From Escherichia coli (GTDB taxonomy: Bacteria; Pseudomonadota; Gammaproteobacteria; Enterobacterales; Enterobacteriaceae), in the NCBI RefSeq assembly GCF_024502345.1, contig NZ_JALDNN010000001.1: 64,000 nt of DNA; one strand, 5' to 3'. A program made the position numbers and the translations under genes. A model generated the notes under the pieces. It was given only the letters and a program-made list of their open reading frames with translations, did no database searches and was not told where the DNA came from. Positions 18,010 through 38,443 of the stretch are shown here, in pieces. The stretch's first letter is position 1, and each line of letters starts with the position of its first letter.

Positions 18010-18832
18010 GTGTTCCCCGCGCCAGCGGGGATAAACCGCGCGATTTGTTAGCGCCCGTTGCGCCTGGTGGGTGTTCCCCGCGCCAGCGGGGATAAACCGC
18101 GCGAGTTCGTGCGCATGGGGCGCATTTTTGGCGTGTTCCCCGCGCCAGCGGGGATAAACCGCGGCGTTCATGCCCTCCAGCACTGTTACGCGGGTGTTCC
18201 CCGCGCCAGCGGGGATAAACCGTAGTCAAGCGGTAATTCATCGCCTGCAGATCCGAGTTCCCCGCGCCAGCGGGGATAAACCGGCTAATTTACGTAATTT
18301 ACGTGCTATTGCACTGAGTTCCCCGCGCCAGCGGGGATAAACCGTGGGTCATGCCGGTGATCGCCTGCCCGTCGTGGAGTTCCCCGCGCCAGCGGGGATA
18401 AACCATCACCACCGCTTGTCATAAAATTAGCGTCATAGAGTTCCCCGCGCCAGCGGGGATAAACCGGGGAGTGGCACTTCTGGGGTAGCGGCGGCCCTGA
18501 GTTCCCCGCGCCAGCGGGGATAAACCGTCAACGCGCTCAGACGTTGCGTGAGTGAACCAGAGTTCCCCGCGCCAGCGGGGATAAACCGAAATATCCAGGG
18601 CTGGGCTGGAGGCAGACGGCGAGTTCCCCGCGCCAGCGGGGATAAACCGGCGTTGATGTTCTTGCGGGTGTTGCAAATATTGAGTTCCCCGCGCCAGCGG
18701 GGATAAACCGTTTCAGCAGTTCAGCGTAACACCGACGGTCACGAGTTCCCCGCGCCAGCGGGGATAAACCGCCCGGAATGCATTCTGAAGGTTTGCTGTA
18801 TATGAGTTCCCCGCGCCAGCGGGGATAAACCA
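18010..18832 (+). CRISPR. type I-E CRISPR array, 14 repeats and 13 spacers, leader on the low-coordinate side
   Basis: 29-bp repeat G(T/A)GTTCCCCGCGCCAGCGGGGATAAACCG at 18010, 18071, 18133, 18194, 18255, 18316, 18377, 18438, 18499, 18560, 18621, 18682, 18743, 18804; spacers 32 bp (one of 33). Confidence 0.97.
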
Positions 18833-19286: not shown

Positions 19287-19424
19287 ATATTCCTTGTAAA
19301 AACAGGGATAAACCGAACTAGTTAAAGTTTTTATTATGTTCCCTGCATCAGCGGGGATAAACCGGACTTGTTATCATTTTTTAAGTTGTCGAACTTATGT
19401 TCCCCGCGTCAGCGGGGATAACCA
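19287..19424 (+). CRISPR. degenerate CRISPR remnant (2-3 eroded repeats)
   Basis: cagggataaaccg (19303-19315), atgttccctgcatcagcggggataaaccg (19336-19364), atgttccccgcgtcagcggggataacca (19397-19424); one 20-bp and one 32-bp interval. Confidence 0.65.
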
Positions 19425-19470: not shown

Positions 19471-20949
19471 TCACGCATTCGACCAGCTCTGGATCGAATC
19501 CACATTCCCCAATTCCCCATGCATCACTTCATACGATTTTTTCAGGATCACATCAGTATGTTTGGTTAGGTCTTTGAAAATGCCTTTATTCATCGCGTCG
19601 TAGCGTTTGGCATTGCTCTCAATCGGTATAAAGATATCTTTCACGCGAACCATCTTATCAACAGCCGTTGCGTAATCCGGGTATAGCCCCAGACCTACCG
19701 CTGTATTAATCGCTGCTCCCAGACTTGCACAACCGTTAATGGCGTTACGGCGTGCCGGAAGGTTGAACACGTCGGCAAAAATTTGCATAAACAGATCGCT
19801 GTTCGAACCGCCGCCAGTAATGATCACATGCTTCGCAAAGTGATTCATTTCATTACACATATTGTCGTAATTGTTCTTCAGCGTTAGCGCCACGCTTTCC
19901 AATATCGAACGATATATCCATGCGTAATCCATGCTGGAATCAAAGCCGATCATAATCCCGCGTTTGTACGGTTCCCACGGATTGGTCAGCCAGTCCAGCA
20001 CCGTCATCAGCCCATTACAGCCAGGTGGCACACTAGAGGCTTTCTTGTTGAGTAAATCTTCCGGTGAAAGATCCTGCGCCCTGGCATCCTGAATTAACGA
20101 CTCGCCTAACATGTCACGCAGCCAGCTCACCGTCCACATACCTTTGCGAATACCGTAACCTTCATACAGCAATGTTTGCGGAATAGAAGACATAATCGGC
20201 CAGTACGCCACCGGATCTTTCGGCAGTGCTTTGCCGTTCATCATCAATGCGATGTAAGTGCCAAGAGAAATTACCGCAGTTTCATCATCCAGTAATCCGG
20301 CCCCCAGAGCTTCTACCGGTTTATCACTGGTGGTACAAACAACCGGCAGTCCTGCCGGGAAATGTGTCGCCAGTGCGGCTTGTGGTGTGATATGTCCGAG
20401 GACGGTGCCAGGCATTTGCACATCAAACAGCATATGACGGGGGATATTAAACTTATCCATTACCGCAGCATCTTCGCTCCATGCCCAGCTCTTATAATCC
20501 ACCGGCCACTGACCAAAATAGTTGGCGATATTGTCTTTAAACTCGCCGGTTAAGCGATGCGTCAGATAACCCGAAAAAGAGGTGACATACGCCACGTCAG
20601 GATTCGTATGTTCGTAAGGGCGTGTAACGCGTGCATCCTGCCAGCTAATCAACGGCGCAGCTGGCGTGCCGTCGGCTTTCAATAACGCACGGCAGCAACG
20701 GATGGAGCCCAGGCCGATGCCAACAATATCTTCTTTATTCCCGGCAAACTGGCTCATCAAATCGTGACCTGCAAAACATAATGATGCCCATAAATCGTCG
20801 TCAGGATGTTCTGCAGTATCGGCATAAGGCGTGTGCATCGGCTGTAATAAGCCTTTACCTTCGCAAACCACATTACCTTCCAGATCGTACATCACCACTT
20901 TTGTGCTCTGACTTCCGCCATCAATCCCTATGATGTATTTTTTCGACAT
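19471..20949 (-). CDS. ygcE: FGGY-family carbohydrate kinase
   Basis: 492-aa ORF with FGGY kinase N- and C-terminal signatures (IGIDGGSQSTKVV, GGGSNSDLFMQIFADV). Confidence 0.85.
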   Translation of the reverse strand: MSKKYIIGIDGGSQSTKVVMYDLEGNVVCEGKGLLQPMHTPYADTAEHPDDDLWASLCFAGHDLMSQFAGNKEDIVGIGLGSIRCCRALLKADGTPAAPLISWQDARVTRPYEHTNPDVAYVTSFSGYLTHRLTGEFKDNIANYFGQWPVDYKSWAWSEDAAVMDKFNIPRHMLFDVQMPGTVLGHITPQAALATHFPAGLPVVCTTSDKPVEALGAGLLDDETAVISLGTYIALMMNGKALPKDPVAYWPIMSSIPQTLLYEGYGIRKGMWTVSWLRDMLGESLIQDARAQDLSPEDLLNKKASSVPPGCNGLMTVLDWLTNPWEPYKRGIMIGFDSSMDYAWIYRSILESVALTLKNNYDNMCNEMNHFAKHVIITGGGSNSDLFMQIFADVFNLPARRNAINGCASLGAAINTAVGLGLYPDYATAVDKMVRVKDIFIPIESNAKRYDAMNKGIFKDLTKHTDVILKKSYEVMHGELGNVDSIQSWSNA

Positions 20950-20975
20950 GATTTTTCTCCTGTAATTTTCCTGGC

Positions 20976-22253
20976 TTACTTGCTGCTAGCCATTGCGGGG
21001 GCGCTATCAGCAGTACGAATTTTTTGGAACAGCAAAAAGGTAAAGACAATCACCATGGCAAGCGCCGCCATTCCCATCAGCCACATATTGCGGTAGGCTT
21101 CTGCTGCGGGCAGGGTGTCTTGCCAGTGGCCGATAATCGGGTAAACGAAGACATCCGGCAGGAATCCAATCACCGAACAAATACCTACCGTGGTGCCCAT
21201 AATGTAAGACGGTGTTCTCGCTTCGCCAGGGCAGGCCCAGTACAGCCCGCGTGAGGCGTAACAGGTGAATCCCAGCAGTAAAATCAGGCCAATCCCCATC
21301 GCGACCGATTGCGGGTTAGAGTTCGTGACGAGCAGGGCAGTTAACGCCAGCAGGTCGAGTACGGAAAGGATTTGGATCACGCGGGTAGGGGATTTCACTT
21401 TACTGTAGGTGGTGATAATGCCGCCAAGTGGGCCGCACAGCGCGCGGAAGATTTTGTTGATCACAATCCCCATGTAGCTCGCTGCCACCAGCGACATGCC
21501 GTACATTTCGGTCAGATAGTTGGTGGAGTAACTCAGAATGGCGTAGATTGTGAAGACACCAAAAATCACCATGCTGCAATACCAGGTGGTGCTGATACGC
21601 AAAACGGCAAGGATGTCGCTAAGCTGGAATGACTGTTTTTCTTCGTTATTGGCACTGCGCAGGTTGTTGTTATCGCTAACAAAAAACCAGCACAGAATCC
21701 CCAACAAGATGTAAACCACACTGTAGATGATAATGACTGTTTTCAGGCTGGCGCTGTCATCCGGTGCAAAGCGAGAAAAGACCCACATGGTAAACACCGC
21801 CAGCGACATTACACCGACGCCGCGCAGCCCTTCCATCCAGCCCATAATTTTCCCTTGCTCACTATGATCGCCCAGCAACGAGGCGGCTTTAATCGACACC
21901 GACCACAGCATTAAAATCGTCGTTATCGCAAAGGCGACCTGAATACAGAGCATTACCCACAGCGGTGGATACGTTGCCATTAACAGACCCAGTAATCCGG
22001 TAATGATCATCGCGGAAGTAATCATTTTGCGGTGTGAAAATTTATCGGCAATAACGCCGCTGGGGGCATAAAGAATAATAGCCGCAATACCAAAGGTACT
22101 CATTATTAAACCTATCTCGGTATTGCTGAATCCCATAAATTTCGCCATGGGAATTTGATAAATATAACGTAAATAAGCCAGGTCAAAACTAACGCCGCCG
22201 CTAAAACTAATTATCGCGAGGGTTATCCAACGGCGATATGAGTTGTGTTGCAT
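20976..22253 (-). CDS. yqcE: MFS transporter
   Basis: 425-aa multi-pass hydrophobic ORF. Confidence 0.8.
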   Translation of the reverse strand: MQHNSYRRWITLAIISFSGGVSFDLAYLRYIYQIPMAKFMGFSNTEIGLIMSTFGIAAIILYAPSGVIADKFSHRKMITSAMIITGLLGLLMATYPPLWVMLCIQVAFAITTILMLWSVSIKAASLLGDHSEQGKIMGWMEGLRGVGVMSLAVFTMWVFSRFAPDDSASLKTVIIIYSVVYILLGILCWFFVSDNNNLRSANNEEKQSFQLSDILAVLRISTTWYCSMVIFGVFTIYAILSYSTNYLTEMYGMSLVAASYMGIVINKIFRALCGPLGGIITTYSKVKSPTRVIQILSVLDLLALTALLVTNSNPQSVAMGIGLILLLGFTCYASRGLYWACPGEARTPSYIMGTTVGICSVIGFLPDVFVYPIIGHWQDTLPAAEAYRNMWLMGMAALAMVIVFTFLLFQKIRTADSAPAMASSK

Positions 22254-22431
22254 ATCGTATTCCCATTTGTAATAGAAAAAAAAAAGAGAAAAGTAAGCCG
22301 CCCTTTCAGGTGGATTACTTTTCTCAGGTCTCTAGTAATTGCAATAAGAAATAACATGGAAAGCAGAGGTGTTGTGTGAGAGTAATCACGCTTCTGCTTT
22401 TTAAAACTATTTGACAATACGAATATCACAC

Positions 22432-22447
22432 TGTGATTACGATCACA
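22432..22447. promoter_or_regulatory. CRP-like binding site (TGTGA-N6-TCACA)
   Basis: tgtgattacgatcaca, perfect match to both CRP half-sites, in the yqcE/ygcW divergent intergenic region; a ttgaca hexamer lies at 22411-22416. Confidence 0.5.
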
Positions 22448-22500
22448 TTAGCAGTTATGCCGTTATGCTAAAAATTATCTCCAGTTACCAGAGATAATGA

Positions 22501-22547
22501 GAAAGGTAACTTCCCTCTCGCGGGGGAAGTTACCTTTCTTTTTTTTT
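22501..22547 (+). terminator. intrinsic terminator-like hairpin upstream of ygcW (candidate attenuator)
   Basis: Perfect 15-bp stem gaaaggtaacttccc / gggaagttacctttc, 8-nt loop, then nine T; 24 nt before the ygcW ATG. Confidence 0.6.
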
Positions 22548-22571
22548 GCCTTACGGAAATTGGAGCTAACT

Positions 22572-23357
22572 ATGTCAATCGAATCTCTCAATGCGTTCTC
22601 AATGGATTTTTTCTCACTGAAAGGTAAAACCGCAATTGTTACCGGTGGGAATAGCGGTTTAGGCCAGGCATTTGCCATGGCGTTGGCCAAAGCTGGCGCA
22701 AATATCTTTATTCCTAGTTTCGTCAAAGATAACGGCGAAACAAAGGAAATGATTGAAAAACAGGGTGTTGAGGTGGACTTCATGCAGGTGGATATCACCG
22801 CAGAAGGCGCGCCGCAGAAGATTATCGCTGCTTGCTGTGAGCGTTTCGGTACAGTTGATATTCTGGTAAACAATGCCGGTATTTGTAAGCTGAATAAGGT
22901 GCTGGACTTCGGTCGTGCCGACTGGGATCCGATGATTGATGTGAACCTGACCGCCGCATTCGAGTTAAGCTATGAAGCGGCAAAAATTATGATCCCGCAG
23001 AAAAGCGGCAAAATTATTAATATCTGTTCATTGTTCTCTTACTTAGGTGGACAATGGTCACCTGCATATTCTGCCACTAAACATGCTCTTGCCGGATTCA
23101 CCAAAGCTTATTGTGATGAACTAGGTCAATATAATATTCAGGTAAATGGTATTGCCCCTGGCTATTATGCAACAGATATTACGCTGGCGACACGCAGTAA
23201 TCCAGAAACCAATCAGCGCGTTCTTGATCATATTCCGGCAAACCGTTGGGGCGATACTCAGGATTTAATGGGCGCAGCTGTATTCCTCGCAAGTCCGGCT
23301 TCAAATTATGTCAATGGGCATTTATTAGTGGTCGATGGTGGTTATTTAGTGCGCTAA
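22572..23357 (+). CDS. ygcW: short-chain dehydrogenase/reductase (SDR)
   Basis: Start taken at MSIESLNAF (261 aa); Rossmann TGGNSGLG motif and catalytic YSATK; the track ORF starts upstream at 22497 and would read through the hairpin. Confidence 0.8.
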   Translation: MSIESLNAFSMDFFSLKGKTAIVTGGNSGLGQAFAMALAKAGANIFIPSFVKDNGETKEMIEKQGVEVDFMQVDITAEGAPQKIIAACCERFGTVDILVNNAGICKLNKVLDFGRADWDPMIDVNLTAAFELSYEAAKIMIPQKSGKIINICSLFSYLGGQWSPAYSATKHALAGFTKAYCDELGQYNIQVNGIAPGYYATDITLATRSNPETNQRVLDHIPANRWGDTQDLMGAAVFLASPASNYVNGHLLVVDGGYLVR

Positions 23358-23426
23358 TCCATAACGGTGGTTTCTGTTTTCTCTTATTAATGATTATTCC
23401 ATTTTTATTATCAGGAAGGAATTACT

Positions 23427-24881
23427 ATGTCTTTATCTCGCGCAGCGATTGTCGACCAACTAAAGGAAATTGTTGGTGCAGATCGCGTAATTACCGATGA
23501 AACAGTATTAAAGAAGAACAGTATTGACCGTTTTCGTAAATTTCCGGATATTCATGGCATTTATACTTTGCCGATTCCGGCAGCGGTCGTAAAACTCGGT
23601 TCCACAGAGCAAGTATCCCGTGTGCTGAATTTTATGAATGCGCACAAAATTAACGGTGTGCCGCGTACCGGTGCTTCCGCCACCGAAGGTGGGCTGGAAA
23701 CTGTTGTAGAAAACTCGGTGGTGCTCGACGGTTCCGCCATGAATCAAATCATTAATATTGATATTGAGAATATGCAGGCGACGGCGCAATGTGGCGTTCC
23801 CCTGGAAGTGCTGGAAAATGCGTTGCGTGAAAAAGGTTACACCACGGGGCATTCTCCGCAGTCAAAGCCGCTGGCGCAGATGGGCGGCCTGGTAGCAACC
23901 CGCAGTATCGGGCAGTTCTCCACACTCTACGGCGCAATCGAAGATATGGTCGTTGGTCTGGAGGCAGTGTTGGCAGATGGCACCGTCACACGCATTAAAA
24001 ACGTGCCACGCCGCGCGGCTGGCCCGGACATTCGTCACATCATCATCGGCAACGAAGGTGCATTGTGCTATATCACTGAAGTAACAGTGAAAATCTTTAA
24101 ATTCACCCCGGAAAACAACCTCTTCTACGGCTATATCCTGGAAGACATGAAAACCGGCTTCAACATCCTGCGTGAAATCATGGTGGAAGGGTATCGTCCG
24201 TCGATCGCTCGTTTGTATGACGCTGAAGATGGCACCCAACACTTCACCCATTTTGCCGACGGTAAATGTGTGCTGATCTTTATGGCTGAAGGCAATCCTC
24301 GCATTGCGAAGGCGACGGGCGAAGGGATTGCGGAAATCGTTGCCCGCTACCCGCAGTGCCAGCGCGTGGACAGCAAACTGATCGAAACCTGGTTTAACAA
24401 CCTGAACTGGGGACCGGATAAAGTGGCTGCCGAACGTGTGCAGATCCTCAAAACCGGCAACATGGGCTTTACCACTGAAGTGTCCGGCTGCTGGAGCTGC
24501 ATCCACGAAATCTACGAAAGCGTTATTAACCGTATTCGTACTGAGTTCCCGCACGCCGACGACATCACCATGCTGGGCGGTCACTCCTCTCATAGCTATC
24601 ATAACGGCACCAACATGTACTTCGTCTACGATTACAACGTCGTTGACTGTAAGCCGGAAGAGGAAATCGACAAGTACCACAATCCGCTCAACAAGATCAT
24701 CTGTGAAGAAACCATTCGCCTCGGCGGTTCGATGGTGCACCACCACGGTATCGGTAAACATCGCGTTCACTGGAGCAAACTGGAACACGGCAGCGCGTGG
24801 GCGTTGCTGGAAGGGCTGAAAAAGCAGTTCGATCCTAATGGCATTATGAATACGGGTACTATCTATCCGATTGAAAAATAA
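23427..24881 (+). CDS. ygcU: FAD-linked oxidase (FAD-binding PCMH type)
   Basis: 484-aa ORF with FAD-binding domain and C-terminal oxidase domain (HHHGIGKHR). Confidence 0.8.
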   Translation: MSLSRAAIVDQLKEIVGADRVITDETVLKKNSIDRFRKFPDIHGIYTLPIPAAVVKLGSTEQVSRVLNFMNAHKINGVPRTGASATEGGLETVVENSVVLDGSAMNQIINIDIENMQATAQCGVPLEVLENALREKGYTTGHSPQSKPLAQMGGLVATRSIGQFSTLYGAIEDMVVGLEAVLADGTVTRIKNVPRRAAGPDIRHIIIGNEGALCYITEVTVKIFKFTPENNLFYGYILEDMKTGFNILREIMVEGYRPSIARLYDAEDGTQHFTHFADGKCVLIFMAEGNPRIAKATGEGIAEIVARYPQCQRVDSKLIETWFNNLNWGPDKVAAERVQILKTGNMGFTTEVSGCWSCIHEIYESVINRIRTEFPHADDITMLGGHSSHSYHNGTNMYFVYDYNVVDCKPEEEIDKYHNPLNKIICEETIRLGGSMVHHHGIGKHRVHWSKLEHGSAWALLEGLKKQFDPNGIMNTGTIYPIEK

Positions 24882-24974
24882 TGTGTCAGGCAGCGTTCCG
24901 CGATGACGGGGCGTTGCCTTTTCGGCTTCTCAGGCGAGAAGCCGTTCTTATTACCGGACAATGAAGGGGTAAAG

Positions 24975-26312
24975 ATGAACACTTCACCGGTGCGAATGGA
25001 TGATTTACCGCTTAACCGTTTTCACTGCCGCATTGCTGCGCTCACTTTCGGCGCACACCTGACCGACGGTTATGTTCTCGGCGTCATTGGTTACGCCATT
25101 ATTCAGCTTACGCCCGCCATGCAACTGACGCCGTTTATGGCGGGAATGATCGGCGGCTCGGCGCTCCTTGGTTTGTTTCTTGGCAGCCTGGTTCTTGGGT
25201 GGATCTCCGACCATATTGGTCGGCAAAAAATCTTCACCTTCAGCTTTTTGCTGATTACGCTCGCTTCGTTCTTGCAATTTTTTGCCACCACGCCAGAGCA
25301 TCTTATTGGGCTGCGCATTTTGATCGGCATTGGGCTGGGAGGCGATTACTCAGTTGGTCACACCTTGCTGGCTGAATTTTCCCCGCGCCGCCATCGCGGT
25401 ATTTTGCTGGGCGCATTCAGCGTGGTGTGGACCGTAGGTTATGTGCTGGCAAGTATTGCCGGACATCACTTTATTTCCGAAAACCCGGAGGCCTGGCGCT
25501 GGCTGCTGGCATCGGCAGCTCTGCCCGCATTGTTGATTACGTTATTACGCTGGGGAACGCCAGAATCGCCACGCTGGCTACTGCGCCAGGGGCGTTTTGC
25601 AGAAGCTCACGCTATCGTGCATCGCTATTTTGGTCCCCATGTTTTACTGGGCGATGAAGTGGCAACGGCGACCCATAAACACATCAAAACCTTGTTCTCT
25701 TCGCGCTACTGGCGGCGTACGGCGTTTAACAGCGTCTTCTTTGTCTGCCTCGTAATTCCATGGTTTGTGATTTATACCTGGCTGCCAACTATCGCCCAGA
25801 CTATTGGACTGGAAGATGCGCTGACTGCCAGCCTGATGCTTAATGCGTTGTTAATTGTGGGCGCGCTGCTGGGATTAGTTCTGACGCACCTGCTGGCACA
25901 TCGCAAGTTTTTGCTGGGAAGTTTTTTGCTGCTGGCGGCAACGCTGGTAGTGATGGCCTGTTTGCCTTCCGGCAGTTCATTAACGCTACTGCTTTTTGTT
26001 CTCTTCAGCACCACCATTTCGGCAGTCAGTAATCTGGTGGGCATTTTGCCTGCGGAAAGTTTTCCTACTGACATTCGCTCGCTGGGCGTCGGTTTTGCCA
26101 CCGCCATGAGTCGGTTGGGGGCGGCGGTAAGTACTGGCCTGCTGCCGTGGGTGCTGGCGCAGTGGGGAATGCAAGTTACCTTATTGATCCTGGCGGCAGT
26201 GTTGTTAGTTGGTTTTGTCGTGACCTGGCTATGGGCACCAGAAACCAAAGCACTCCCGCTGGTGGCGGCGGGAAATGTAGGAGGTGCGAATGAACATTCT
26301 GTTAGCGTTTAA
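24975..26312 (+). CDS. ygcS: MFS transporter (sugar-porter-like)
   Basis: Start taken at MNTSPVRMDDL (445 aa); 12-TM-like profile. Confidence 0.8.
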   Translation: MNTSPVRMDDLPLNRFHCRIAALTFGAHLTDGYVLGVIGYAIIQLTPAMQLTPFMAGMIGGSALLGLFLGSLVLGWISDHIGRQKIFTFSFLLITLASFLQFFATTPEHLIGLRILIGIGLGGDYSVGHTLLAEFSPRRHRGILLGAFSVVWTVGYVLASIAGHHFISENPEAWRWLLASAALPALLITLLRWGTPESPRWLLRQGRFAEAHAIVHRYFGPHVLLGDEVATATHKHIKTLFSSRYWRRTAFNSVFFVCLVIPWFVIYTWLPTIAQTIGLEDALTASLMLNALLIVGALLGLVLTHLLAHRKFLLGSFLLLAATLVVMACLPSGSSLTLLLFVLFSTTISAVSNLVGILPAESFPTDIRSLGVGFATAMSRLGAAVSTGLLPWVLAQWGMQVTLLILAAVLLVGFVVTWLWAPETKALPLVAAGNVGGANEHSVSV

Positions 26313-27069
26313 AGCCGAACCGGATGCCGGAATGCTGGCGGAAAAAGAGTGGCAGGCGGCGGCTCAGGGTAATAGCGGACCGGATGTTTCGCTACTGCGA
26401 AGTTTACTCGGTGCTGATGAACAGGCTGCCGCCGCGCTGCTGTTGGCGCAGATAAAAAACGGTACGCCGATGTCTTTAACCGCGTTGAGCATGGGGGATG
26501 AACGGGCGTTACACTGGCTGCGCTATCTCATGGCTCTTGGGTTTGAGGAAGCTGTATTGCTGGAGACGGCGGCAGATCTGCGCTTTGCACCGGAATTTGT
26601 CGCTCGCCATATTGCCGAATGGCAGCGTCAGAATCCGCTGGATCTGATAATTACCGGCTGCCAAAGCAGCGAAGGGCAGAATTGGCAAACGCCATTTTTG
26701 CTGGCGGAAATGCTGGGCTGGCCCTGCTTCACCCAGGTGGAGCGTTTCACTCTCGACGCGCCGTTTATCACCCTCGAACAGCGTACTGAACATGGGTTGC
26801 GTTGTTGCCGGGTTCGCTTGCCTGCGGTGATTGCCGTGCGCCAGTGTGGTGAAGTGGCCTTGCCAGTACCGGGAATGCGCCAGCGAATGGCTGCGGGGAA
26901 AGCGGAAATTATCCGTAAAACTGTTGCTGCCGAATTGCCAGCGATGCAGTGTCTGCAACTGGCAAGAGCAGAGCAACGACGCGGAGCGACGCTGATTGAT
27001 GGGAAAACGGTAGCAGAAAAAGCGCAAAAGCTATGGCAGGACTATTTACGCCAAAGGATGCAGCCATGA
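26290..27069 (+). CDS. ygcR: electron-transfer flavoprotein beta-subunit-like (FixA-like)
   Basis: 259-aa ORF from the ATG after a GTG; SD aggagg upstream; paired with an alpha-like subunit gene. Confidence 0.75.
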   Translation: MNILLAFKAEPDAGMLAEKEWQAAAQGNSGPDVSLLRSLLGADEQAAAALLLAQIKNGTPMSLTALSMGDERALHWLRYLMALGFEEAVLLETAADLRFAPEFVARHIAEWQRQNPLDLIITGCQSSEGQNWQTPFLLAEMLGWPCFTQVERFTLDAPFITLEQRTEHGLRCCRVRLPAVIAVRQCGEVALPVPGMRQRMAAGKAEIIRKTVAAELPAMQCLQLARAEQRRGATLIDGKTVAEKAQKLWQDYLRQRMQP

Positions 27070-27926
27070 ATATCGCAATTGTGACAATAAATCAGGAGAA
27101 TGCCGCATTAGCGGGCTGGCTGGCGGCGCAGGATTTCAGCGGTTGTACCCTGGCGCACTGGCAAATAGAACCACAGCCCGTAGTGGTGGAACAGGTGCTG
27201 GATGCGCTGGTGGAACAGTGGAAGCGAACGCCTACGGACGTTGTTCTCTTTCCGCAGGGAACGTTTGGCGATGAACTGTCGACCCGGCTGGCCTGGCGTT
27301 TACATGGTGCAAGCATCTGCCAGGTGACTTCGTTAGATATTCCAACCGTAAGCGTGCGCAAATCCCACTGGGGAAATGCGCTAACGGCGACGCTGCAAAC
27401 AGAAAAACGCCCGCTATGCCTTTCCCTGGCGCGTCAGGCGGGAGCAGAGAAAAACGCCACGTTGCCCTCTGGTATGCAGCAACTGAACATTGTCCCAGGT
27501 GCGCTTCCCGACTGGCTGGTTAGCATAGAGAATCTGAAAAATGTTAGCCGCGACCCATTAGCTGAAGCCAGACGGGTGCTGGTGGTGGGGCAGGGCGGAG
27601 AGGCAGATAACCAGGAAATCGCTATGCTGGCAGAAAAGCTGGGAGCCGAAGTGGGCTACAGTCGGGCGCGAGTGATGAACGGTGGCGTTGATGCTGAAAA
27701 AGTGATTGGTATTTCCGGACATCTGCTGGCACCTGAGGTGTGTATTGTTGTTGGCGCTTCTGGCGCAGCAGCGTTAATGGCGGGCGTACGCAATAGCAAG
27801 TTTGTGGTGGCGATTAATCATGACGCCAGCGCAGCGGTATTTTCACAGGCAGATGTTGGCGTGGTTGATGACTGGAAAGTGGTGCTGGAGGCACTGGTGA
27901 CAAACATTGACGCAGAATGCCAATAA
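27066..27926 (+). CDS. ygcQ: electron-transfer flavoprotein alpha-subunit-like (FixB-like)
   Basis: 286-aa ORF (start at MNIAIVTINQ), overlapping the ygcR stop. Confidence 0.75.
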   Translation: MNIAIVTINQENAALAGWLAAQDFSGCTLAHWQIEPQPVVVEQVLDALVEQWKRTPTDVVLFPQGTFGDELSTRLAWRLHGASICQVTSLDIPTVSVRKSHWGNALTATLQTEKRPLCLSLARQAGAEKNATLPSGMQQLNIVPGALPDWLVSIENLKNVSRDPLAEARRVLVVGQGGEADNQEIAMLAEKLGAEVGYSRARVMNGGVDAEKVIGISGHLLAPEVCIVVGASGAAALMAGVRNSKFVVAINHDASAAVFSQADVGVVDDWKVVLEALVTNIDAECQ

Positions 27927-28072: not shown

Positions 28073-28648
28073 TCAAAGCAATTTTTTAGCTAACGTCCAG
28101 ACTCCGGTATTCGTGGTGGAAAGCGCCACGACACCCGCGTTAATCGCATTACGCGCATTTTCTTCATCGCATACCAGCCCGCCAGCAATCAGCGGTTGAC
28201 GGATTTTCTCCGTCACCCAGCCCAGCACTTTGGGCATACAGCCAGGCAGGATCTCAATACAATCCGGATTCGATTGCGCAACTTGCTTATCAATGTTGTG
28301 AAACGAAATTGAATCAACAATAAACAGGCGATGAATACAGAAAAAACCTTCCGCTCTTGCCGCTTTCAGCATTGAGGCTTTGGTACTGATAATTCCGTCC
28401 GCCTCGGTCACCAGTTTCAAAAACTGAATCACGACTTCTTTATTTGACGCGCCTTCCAGCAAATCAACATGAATAAAAGCATATTTCCCGGCGTTCTTAA
28501 TCTTTTTAACGATATTACTGATGGTGCAGATATTGCCGTACAACACGGAAATAAACTGGCATTCAGAGTCGATTGCCAGTTGCAGGCTGGCATTATCTTT
28601 AACGGCAGCAATCACCGGATTCTGGCGGAGCAGGTGTAAGAGGGGCAT
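28073..28648 (-). CDS. ygcP: GlpP-like glycerol-3-phosphate-responsive antiterminator family protein
   Basis: 191-aa ORF; family assignment from recalled similarity, not computed. Confidence 0.7.
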   Translation of the reverse strand: MPLLHLLRQNPVIAAVKDNASLQLAIDSECQFISVLYGNICTISNIVKKIKNAGKYAFIHVDLLEGASNKEVVIQFLKLVTEADGIISTKASMLKAARAEGFFCIHRLFIVDSISFHNIDKQVAQSNPDCIEILPGCMPKVLGWVTEKIRQPLIAGGLVCDEENARNAINAGVVALSTTNTGVWTLAKKLL

Positions 28649-38231: not shown

Positions 38232-38443
38232 GTGTTCCCCGCGCCAGCGGGGATAAACCGGGGCCGACGGTCGCAGTATTGGACCATTTCAAGTGTTCCC
38301 CGCGCCAGCGGGGATAAACCGACTCTTACATGCTTAATCAGATTCTGGCGGATGTGTTCCCCGCGCCAGCGGGGATAAACCGGGCGCACTGGATGCGATG
38401 ATGGATATCACTTAGAATTCCCCGCCCCTGCGGTAGAACTCCC
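38232..38443 (+). CRISPR. short type I-E CRISPR array: 3 intact repeats, 3 spacers and a degenerate terminal repeat
   Basis: GTGTTCCCCGCGCCAGCGGGGATAAACCG at 38232, 38293, 38354; 32-bp spacers; degenerate repeat gaattccccgcccctgcggtagaactccc at 38415-38443; truncated leader 38136-38231. Confidence 0.92.

Follow-up and report, generated by a model that had tools for sequence, protein, structure and literature searches.

In Bacillus subtilis, the glycerol genes glpD, glpFK and glpTQ are regulated by GlpP, an antiterminator of the Pfam family PF04309, and are preceded by short 5′ leaders that contain a strong intrinsic terminator. The glpD leader is reportedly controlled by GlpP, as is said to have been worked out by Holmberg and Rutberg in 1991 and 1992 and by Glatz et al. 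in 1996 and 1998. In this leader, which was used for the comparison, a weak hairpin with a GAG...GAG loop can form, the 3′ part of which is at the same time the 5′ arm of the terminator, and catabolite control is added at the promoter by CcpA. Corresponding elements recur at the locus described here, which is located in a 64,000-nucleotide segment of an Escherichia coli chromosome (assembly GCF_024502345.1, contig NZ_JALDNN010000001.1; in the following termed the window). The 319-bp intergenic gap between the divergent genes ygcW and yqcE (98.4% identity to K-12 over the gap) encodes two leaders of this build, catabolite control would be exerted by CRP instead of CcpA, and the same gene cluster encodes YgcP, a protein of the PF04309 family. 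We propose that the operons ygcWUSRQ and yqcE-ygcE are controlled by CRP-activated, YgcP-dependent antitermination, a reading to which we assign a probability of roughly 0.7 and in which the binding of YgcP and its ligand are deduced from this likeness.

The type of system is known from B. subtilis, and what is new is the host, the regulated pathway and the definition of the RNA target at the level of sequence. While the GlpP system acts on glycerol genes, the ygc leaders precede genes for a short-chain dehydrogenase/reductase (SDR), a flavin adenine dinucleotide (FAD)-dependent oxidase, electron transfer flavoprotein (ETF) subunits, an FGGY kinase and major facilitator superfamily (MFS) transporters. 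In contrast to the GlpP system the host is Gram-negative, two divergent leaders share one intergenic region, and the helix of the weak hairpin comprises 6-7 bp (AGUUACY with RGUAACU) compared to about 4-6 bp in glpD. The likeness of YgcP to GlpP rests on sequence, and its binding to RNA is proposed.

The same logic is used by BglG in E. coli and by SacY and LicT in B. subtilis, where the protein steadies a weak ribonucleic antiterminator (RAT) hairpin that overlaps the 5′ arm of a terminator in the leader of a catabolic operon. These regulators are unrelated proteins composed of a co-antiterminator (CAT) domain and phosphotransferase system (PTS) regulation domains (PRDs), they are under control of PTS phosphorylation, and the RAT differs from the ygc element in sequence and shape. 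HutP and TRAP, the latter promoting termination, recognise NAG, GAG or UAG triplets that recur within a leader RNA; similarly, repeated single-stranded GAG triplets near a terminator may be the recognition feature in the ygc leaders. HutP and TRAP have other folds and stoichiometries, and the ygc element has only two repeats, both in a hairpin loop.

Leader RNAs and terminators of ygcW and yqcE

On the plus strand, the ygcW leader contains an intrinsic terminator (22499-22547), consisting of a stem-loop (22499-22540) and a run of nine T (22539-22547) that ends 24 nt before the ygcW ATG at 22572. A preliminary description of this DNA had reported a perfect 15-bp stem (22501-22515 and 22524-22538) together with the nine T and the distance to the ATG, all at the correct coordinates, and a scan lengthens the stem to 19 pairs with a 4-nt loop. 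The fold was calculated to have -30.6 kcal/mol (z = -7.8), and none of 200 shuffled sequences was equally stable. As also stated there, no upstream gene on this strand needs a terminator at this position, and the same holds for the opposite strand. The same description had suggested that cagttacc (22482-22489) pairs with ggtaact (22505-22511) as an anti-terminator, and this pairing turned out to be the minimum-energy fold of the first 38 nt of the leader and to show compensatory changes across genera and phyla. The resulting anti-terminator hairpin (22483-22511), the proposed YgcP site, pairs AGUUACC (22483-22489) with GGUAACU (22505-22511), and its loop AGAGAUAAUGAGAAA (22490-22504) holds an invariant GAG...GAG. 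The suggested comparison of folding energies gave -6.7 kcal/mol for the anti-terminator compared to -30.6 kcal/mol for the terminator.

The preliminary description was restricted to this plus-strand device; the yqcE twin, a second CRP site and ygcP are added here. The minus strand of the gap carries a mirror-image copy of the whole device in the leader of yqcE. Its terminator (22276-22325) is composed of a stem-loop (22325-22286) with a stem of 11 + 5 pairs (-20.5 kcal/mol) and a run of ten T (22285-22276), which ends 22 nt before the yqcE ATG at 22253, so that both leaders have the stem-loop and U tract of an intrinsic terminator. The anti-terminator hairpin of yqcE (22314-22339) pairs AUUACU (22339-22334) with AGUAAU (22319-22314) around the loop AGAGACCUGAGAAA and has -1.4 kcal/mol. 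The two leaders can be aligned from the 5′ motif through the T run and share the motif CA(G/A)TTAC(C/T)-AGAGA-N2-3-TGAGAAA-(G/A)GTAA. The helix GTTACC/GGTAAC of ygcW corresponds to ATTACT/AGTAAT in yqcE, i.e., two compensatory changes separate the two copies within one genome, one of them an A-U pair in yqcE at the position of a G-C pair in ygcW. In each leader, the 3′ strand of the hairpin together with the second GAGAAA repeat serves as the terminator's 5′ arm. As anti-terminators of -6.7 and -1.4 kcal/mol compete with terminators of -30.6 and -20.5 kcal/mol, a helper factor is needed.

Both leaders can be traced in published RNA data. Romero et al. 2014 (PMC4681348) reported two new small RNAs (sRNAs) between ygcW and yqcE, the 73-nt ecr2774 and the 63-nt ecr2775, the latter confirmed by northern blot; the sRNAs detected by northern blot in that study differ in abundance between LB medium and M9 glucose. 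Conversion from U00096.2 to U00096.3 (offset 1978, anchored on the start codons) places ecr2774 (2898315-2898388 in U00096.2; Table S5) at 22479-22552 on the plus strand, which is the ygcW leader RNA, and ecr2775 (2898527-2898590; Fig. 7 and Table S5) at 22277-22340 on the minus strand, which is the yqcE leader RNA. In converted coordinates both begin where the conserved motif starts and extend to the T run. Each is thus an independent short transcript with a terminator hairpin and a U tail, as is characteristic for Hfq-dependent trans-acting sRNAs. In the Term-seq data of Adams et al. 2021 (PMC7815308) a 3′ end was listed at K-12 position 2900311 (minus strand; 40,640 reads, intrinsic score 15.8) and another at 2900556 (plus strand; 1,557 reads, intrinsic score 11.4); the score threshold for an intrinsic terminator is 3, neither end is Rho-dependent, and the column for regulatory elements is blank for both. 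With the indexing of the table checked on SgrS, these ends correspond to window positions 22534 and 22289, 38 and 36 nt upstream of the ygcW and yqcE start codons, respectively. Both hairpins therefore carry an in vivo 3′ end without Rho dependence, as an intrinsic terminator does, and for the ygcW hairpin this was the Term-seq check that had been suggested beforehand. The Term-seq ends lie 5 nt (ygcW leader) and 4 nt (yqcE leader) ahead of the T run, and the boundaries of ecr2774 and ecr2775 reach it.

It is concluded that ecr2774 and ecr2775 and the two orphan Term-seq 3′ ends are the same molecules as the leaders described here; both publications report them without assigning a function or a regulator. 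The claim that nothing is recorded at this position holds for genome annotation, as RefSeq E. coli genomes have no feature annotated at the leader positions, and fails for the literature, which already contains the CRP site, the short RNAs and the 3′ ends as unannotated list entries. In a literature search no paper was found that ties these three kinds of entry to one another, to YgcP or to attenuation. A permissive search of 21800-23000 against Rfam 15 yielded exclusively sub-threshold matches, the best with 22.4 bits compared to a gathering score of 80.4. A known Rfam riboswitch, leader or sRNA family was ruled out on these grounds, every match being far under the gathering score.

Further structures in the ygcW leader were considered. 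A hairpin TTATCTC/GAGATAA (22476-22498) was rejected, since conservation is lacking even in Escherichia and Citrobacter and most of its 5′ arm is located upstream of the RNA 5′ end. An ATG at 22497 in the leader loop is in frame with ygcW without an intervening stop and creates a mechanical open reading frame (ORF) of 286 amino acids, which could mislead gene callers. A leader-peptide attenuator was rejected as well, as this ATG is the only one in the ygcW leader, runs without a stop into ygcW and is replaced by ACG, AAG or AGA in other genera.

CRP sites and promoters of the two leaders

The preliminary description had pointed to a perfect CRP core at 22432-22447. The sequence of this site 1, TGTGATTACGATCACA (centre 22439.5; ygcW promoter), was given correctly, and its binding, which the description had proposed to check by chromatin immunoprecipitation, is found in published data: a CRP ChIP-seq peak in the enterotoxigenic E. 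coli (ETEC) strain H10407 falls at exactly this site (PMC4287617), and a dissociation constant (Kd) of about 1.7 nM for CRP was determined by in vitro Footprint-seq (PMC12871828). PhyloScan (2007) had already listed it among its top computational predictions. The further TCACA half-site reported at 22426 is present, yet lacks conservation even inside the genus Escherichia. A second CRP-like site, TGTGAGAGTAATCACG, is located 57 bp away at 22375-22390 (centre 22382.5) in the yqcE promoter; it agrees at 9 of 10 core positions, and binding of CRP to it is predicted. Allowing at most one mismatch, the CRP pattern has four matches in the 64-kb window, two of which are inside the 319-bp gap. The yqcE-ygcE operon was assigned to activation by Crp from expression data (PMC8085971).

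The spacing is the same at both promoters. Taking the leader 5′ ends from the RNA-seq boundaries (PMC4681348), the centre of site 1 lies 39.5-41.5 nt 5′ of the ygcW leader RNA (5′ end at 22479-22481) and that of site 2 41.5-42.5 nt 5′ of the yqcE leader RNA (5′ end at 22340-22341), which at both promoters is the spacing of class II CRP activation with the centre near -41.5 from the start. Extended -10 elements are predicted from the sequence and from a conserved TGyTA block, namely TGcTAAAAA (22466-22474, plus strand) for ygcW and TGtTATTTC (22348-22356, minus strand) for yqcE. Across 88 enterobacterial leaders, the TGyTA extended -10 is conserved upstream of every one, and each (88/88) has a CRP-like site that agrees at 8 or more of 10 core positions and has its centre 40.5-43.5 nt upstream of the motif. 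We infer that both promoters are activated by CRP in the class II manner. The medium-dependent northern signal and the Crp assignment of yqcE-ygcE from expression are indirect indications that transcription depends on crp. The Cappable-seq supplementary data contain no start-site entries for the gap region.

Covariation of the leaders and their association with YgcP

A covariance model built on the terminator fold (R1) matches the ygcW leader at 22481-22547 (75.1 bits) and the yqcE leader at 22278-22342 (75.8 bits). According to this model, the window and each of 43 related Enterobacterales loci retrieved via YgcP contain precisely two divergent copies, with 89 matches at E < 1e-7 in 0.93 Mb and none elsewhere; likewise, a regular expression returned two divergent copies in every Enterobacterales locus that reaches the ygcW-yqcE gap. 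The leaders are present in 93% of complete E. coli genomes, in a median of two places per genome and at this locus only. At its top the terminator stem is free to vary with compensation: both sides are changed in 10 of 19 pairs, and 90.5% of the alignment cells are paired. In contrast, the 5′ motif is nearly invariant. In 86 distinct sequences the anti-terminator helix is 93.7% paired, compared to 15-54% in slid controls, and three pairs are compensatory, with G-C/A-U, U-A/C-G and A-U/G-C alternatives at the three variable positions.

The association extends beyond the Enterobacterales. YgcW, YgcU, YgcE, YgcP and usually YqcE form a core set that is also found in Listeria sensu lato, Bacillus sp., Thalassobacillus, Vibrio hannami, Clostridium sediminicola and Fodinisporobacter, and in Listeria, Bacillus, Thalassobacillus, Vibrio, Clostridium and Fodinisporobacter the motif lies directly upstream of the operon or operons beside the YgcP homologue. 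In the Firmicute loci a single copy heads the operon, and a sigma-A-type promoter takes the place of the CRP site. In Faecalibacterium and Lachnoclostridium a YgcP homologue (45-49% identity) is encoded beside genes that resemble glycerol-3-phosphate oxidase/dehydrogenase instead of ygc genes, and the motif precedes those genes. In a cross-phylum alignment of 26 sequences, five of the seven helix pairs are compensatory and 89.7% are paired compared to 22-56% in slid controls; examples of compensated helices are AGUUGCU/AGCGACU in Listeria and Bacillus, GGCGCU/AGCG..CC in Fodinisporobacter and GUUUC/GAAAC in Faecalibacterium. None of these 26 diverse sequences, the B. subtilis glpD leader included, departs from either GAG triplet of the loop. 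The first triplet is unpaired in both alternative folds and the second lies outside the terminator stem in Listeria, so that their conservation needs a cause other than base pairing. YgcW of the Firmicute loci tested is 70-79% identical to the E. coli protein (76-79% for Listeria and Bacillus), and such high identity across phyla suggests that the cassette was transferred horizontally along with its regulator.

The glpD leader itself was taken from the supplement of PMC9604022, and the three glycerol-type leaders were aligned by MAFFT and by eye. The glpD 5′ untranslated region contains GGUCCUGAGAUGAGGAGAGACC, which folds to a hairpin of -6.1 kcal/mol and is followed by a terminator of -40 kcal/mol with a 5′ arm that starts inside this hairpin; the GAG...GAG of glpD aligns with the E. 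coli triplets. As in the GlpP system, a PF04309 protein is encoded with the regulated genes and the terminator of the leader is overlapped by a GlpP-type RNA segment, so that the E. coli leaders appear to have the anatomy of GlpP targets. Clostridial glp-type leaders likewise show a hairpin that overlaps the terminator. There is somewhat more to be said for than against the view that the covarying helix with its two-GAG loop is the general RNA recognition element of the GlpP (PF04309) family.

The proposed trans-acting factor YgcP is encoded on the minus strand at 28073-28648, 5.5 kb away from the leaders within the same cluster, and its RefSeq name is 'glycerol-3-phosphate responsive antiterminator'. 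Residues 12-184 match positions 1-173 of 173 of the Pfam family PF04309 (G3P_antiterm) with E = 4e-62, and the nearest solved relative is Listeria GlpP (PDB 3KTS; E = 1e-27). Its gene is within the cluster in 64 of 64 loci, which were fetched with YgcP as bait from collections with one genome per species; B. subtilis GlpP is absent among the 120 homologues listed. A regulator of the BglG/SacY/LicT type was rejected, as YgcP has PF04309 only and no CAT or PRD domains and the remaining named products of the cluster are an SDR, an FAD oxidase, MFS transporters, the ETF subunits and a kinase. Since the regulated genes are not glycerol genes, the ligand of YgcP is probably different from glycerol-3-phosphate.

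The genes behind the plus-strand leader are ygcW-ygcU-ygcS-ygcR-ygcQ (22572-27926, plus strand), encoding an SDR oxidoreductase, an FAD oxidase, an MFS transporter, ETF beta and ETF alpha, respectively, and those behind the minus-strand leader are yqcE-ygcE (19471-22253, minus strand), encoding an MFS transporter and an FGGY sugar kinase. The genes ygcN-ygcO-ygcP form a separate unit convergent with the ygcW operon; a third leader was sought upstream of ygcN/ygcP, where neither a terminator-like site nor an R1 match was found. Some ygc loci (among L057-L062, L064 and L067-L069) adjoin BCCT or OpuA-type transporters, which may be a clue to the substrate. In Limnobaculum eriocheiris (L033:13875-13951) the gap is reduced to about 130 bp with one hairpin between an A run and a T run and is devoid of both promoters and both 5′ motifs. 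Either the stretch between the inverted hairpins was deleted or the inverted repeat collapsed during assembly. In further Limnobaculum, Budvicia and Enterobacillus loci (L034, 16257-16326 and 16582-16651; L042; L055) the two hairpins are identical within a genome, loop included, and differ between genomes, a pattern suggestive of gene conversion involving the two inverted copies, or of an inversion of the promoter segment that separates them. Apart from the leaders, the window contains type I-E clustered regularly interspaced short palindromic repeat (CRISPR) arrays with the repeat GTTCCCCGCGCCAGCGGGGATAAACCG, one with 14 repeats (18012-18832) between queE and ygcE and a second with three repeats (38234-38382), as well as a lone degenerate repeat at 19338-19364.

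Regulatory model, alternatives and implications

These findings can be combined into a model with two layers of control. In the first, cAMP-CRP would activate two back-to-back class II promoters, each with an extended -10. In the second, the transcript would start almost at the motif CA(G/A)UUACY-AGAGA-N2-4-(U)GAGAAA-RGUAAY, the first 30 nt of which would fold to a weak hairpin with a helix of 6-7 bp and a loop of 14-15 nt holding two GAG(A) repeats. By default, RNA polymerase would stop at the intrinsic terminator 22-24 nt before the start codon, which would yield the 63-73 nt RNAs ecr2775 and ecr2774. If loaded with its inducer, YgcP would bind the GA-rich hairpin and thereby hold the terminator's 5′ arm together with its GAGAAA, which otherwise pairs with the U-proximal base of the stem. 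With the terminator blocked, RNA polymerase would read into ygcWUSRQ and yqcE-ygcE. The inducer is probably, and at this point speculatively, the phosphorylated product of the FGGY kinase YgcE, in analogy to GlpK and glycerol-3-phosphate. That the two leaders are transcription attenuators is regarded as very probable; the preliminary description had proposed an attenuation leader or a short CRP-dependent RNA ending at the T run, and ecr2774, the Term-seq end and the binding of CRP support this.

Several points weigh against YgcP-dependent antitermination at these leaders. The literature search yielded no paper on targets of YgcP. Its gene is located in the separate, convergent ygcNOP unit, which does not carry this leader. 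Most of the compensatory changes within the Enterobacterales represent few events in related lineages, and the shuffle control makes no correction for relatedness. Shorter helices are present in B. subtilis, Faecalibacterium and Lachnoclostridium, and these were assigned by eye without a calibrated model. Furthermore, the Term-seq ends are found 3-6 nt inside the 3′ arms instead of in the T runs, and they probably represent trimmed RNAs and not release points; exonucleolytic trimming through the A-U-rich bases of the stems is suggested.

Of the other explanations, two are equally improbable and survive best. Firstly, the main products could be the CRP-dependent, trans-acting sRNAs ecr2774 and ecr2775, with their position before ygcW and yqcE being incidental. 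Both RNAs do accumulate, as judged from the 40,640 Term-seq reads for the ygcW leader and the northern signal for ecr2775, and both end in a stem-loop with a U tract like Hfq-binding sRNAs. However, in every genome each is positioned right before a conserved operon that is read in the same direction. In the CRP-less Firmicutes one copy heads the operon, and the conserved part is the hairpin overlapping the terminator and not a free seed region. A secondary role in trans could exist for the abundant ygcW leader RNA. Secondly, the terminators could be made conditional by another factor, such as RNA chaperones, Hfq, CsrA or effects of transcription-translation, with YgcP acting elsewhere. This would fit with the location of ygcP outside the transcription units of the leaders and with the proposed nature of YgcP binding. 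General factors, however, leave unexplained why the motif is associated with YgcP in Proteobacteria and Firmicutes and why the GAG...GAG is invariant. The leader has no conserved ORF, the ATG at 22497 being ACG or AAG in other genera.

Slightly less probable still are protein-independent riboswitches, in which the GA-rich hairpin binds a metabolite directly and YgcP is irrelevant. Loop nucleotides that are invariant across phyla in a hairpin overlapping a terminator would be compatible with this, and aptamers of about 35 nt such as preQ1-I exist. The element is, however, a single hairpin with a loop of 14-15 nt for which no further conserved structure was found, it has no match in Rfam, and a PF04309 gene accompanies it at all loci examined. 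Moreover, the same loop motif is present in the glpD leader of B. subtilis, where GlpP is genetically required. The least credible explanation, namely that both inverted 70-bp repeats are what is left of a mobile element or serve as simple insulating terminators without regulatory role, can point to an inverted repeat pair flanking about 260 bp and to the hairpin identity within the Limnobaculum, Budvicia and Enterobacillus genomes, yet E. coli genomes hold just the two copies at this locus, all genera keep them at the same place with respect to the CRP site, the -10 and the start codon, and no upstream gene needs a terminator. None of these four explanations accounts for a motif that follows PF04309 genes across phyla.

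We know of no substrate and no regulation for the ten-gene ygc cluster, and two abundant leader RNAs have stayed unannotated even in K-12, the best-annotated genome. If the model is true, E. coli K-12 would have a second, unrecognised protein-dependent antitermination regulon besides bgl, and YgcP would sense a phosphorylated metabolite made by the YgcE kinase. The link to YgcP offers a cheap handle on the pathway, as a ygcW′ reporter of YgcP activity could help to deorphanise it. The combination of CRP with an antiterminator would constitute a compact and portable two-input switch for synthetic biology; in Bacillus, GlpP together with PglpD has already been proposed as such a switch (PMC9604022). 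For the family as a whole, the model would extend GlpP-type antitermination, which to our knowledge has so far been studied essentially only in B. subtilis, to Gram-negative bacteria, and the definition of the RNA target by sequence and structure can be searched for in any genome and may hold for the whole GlpP family.

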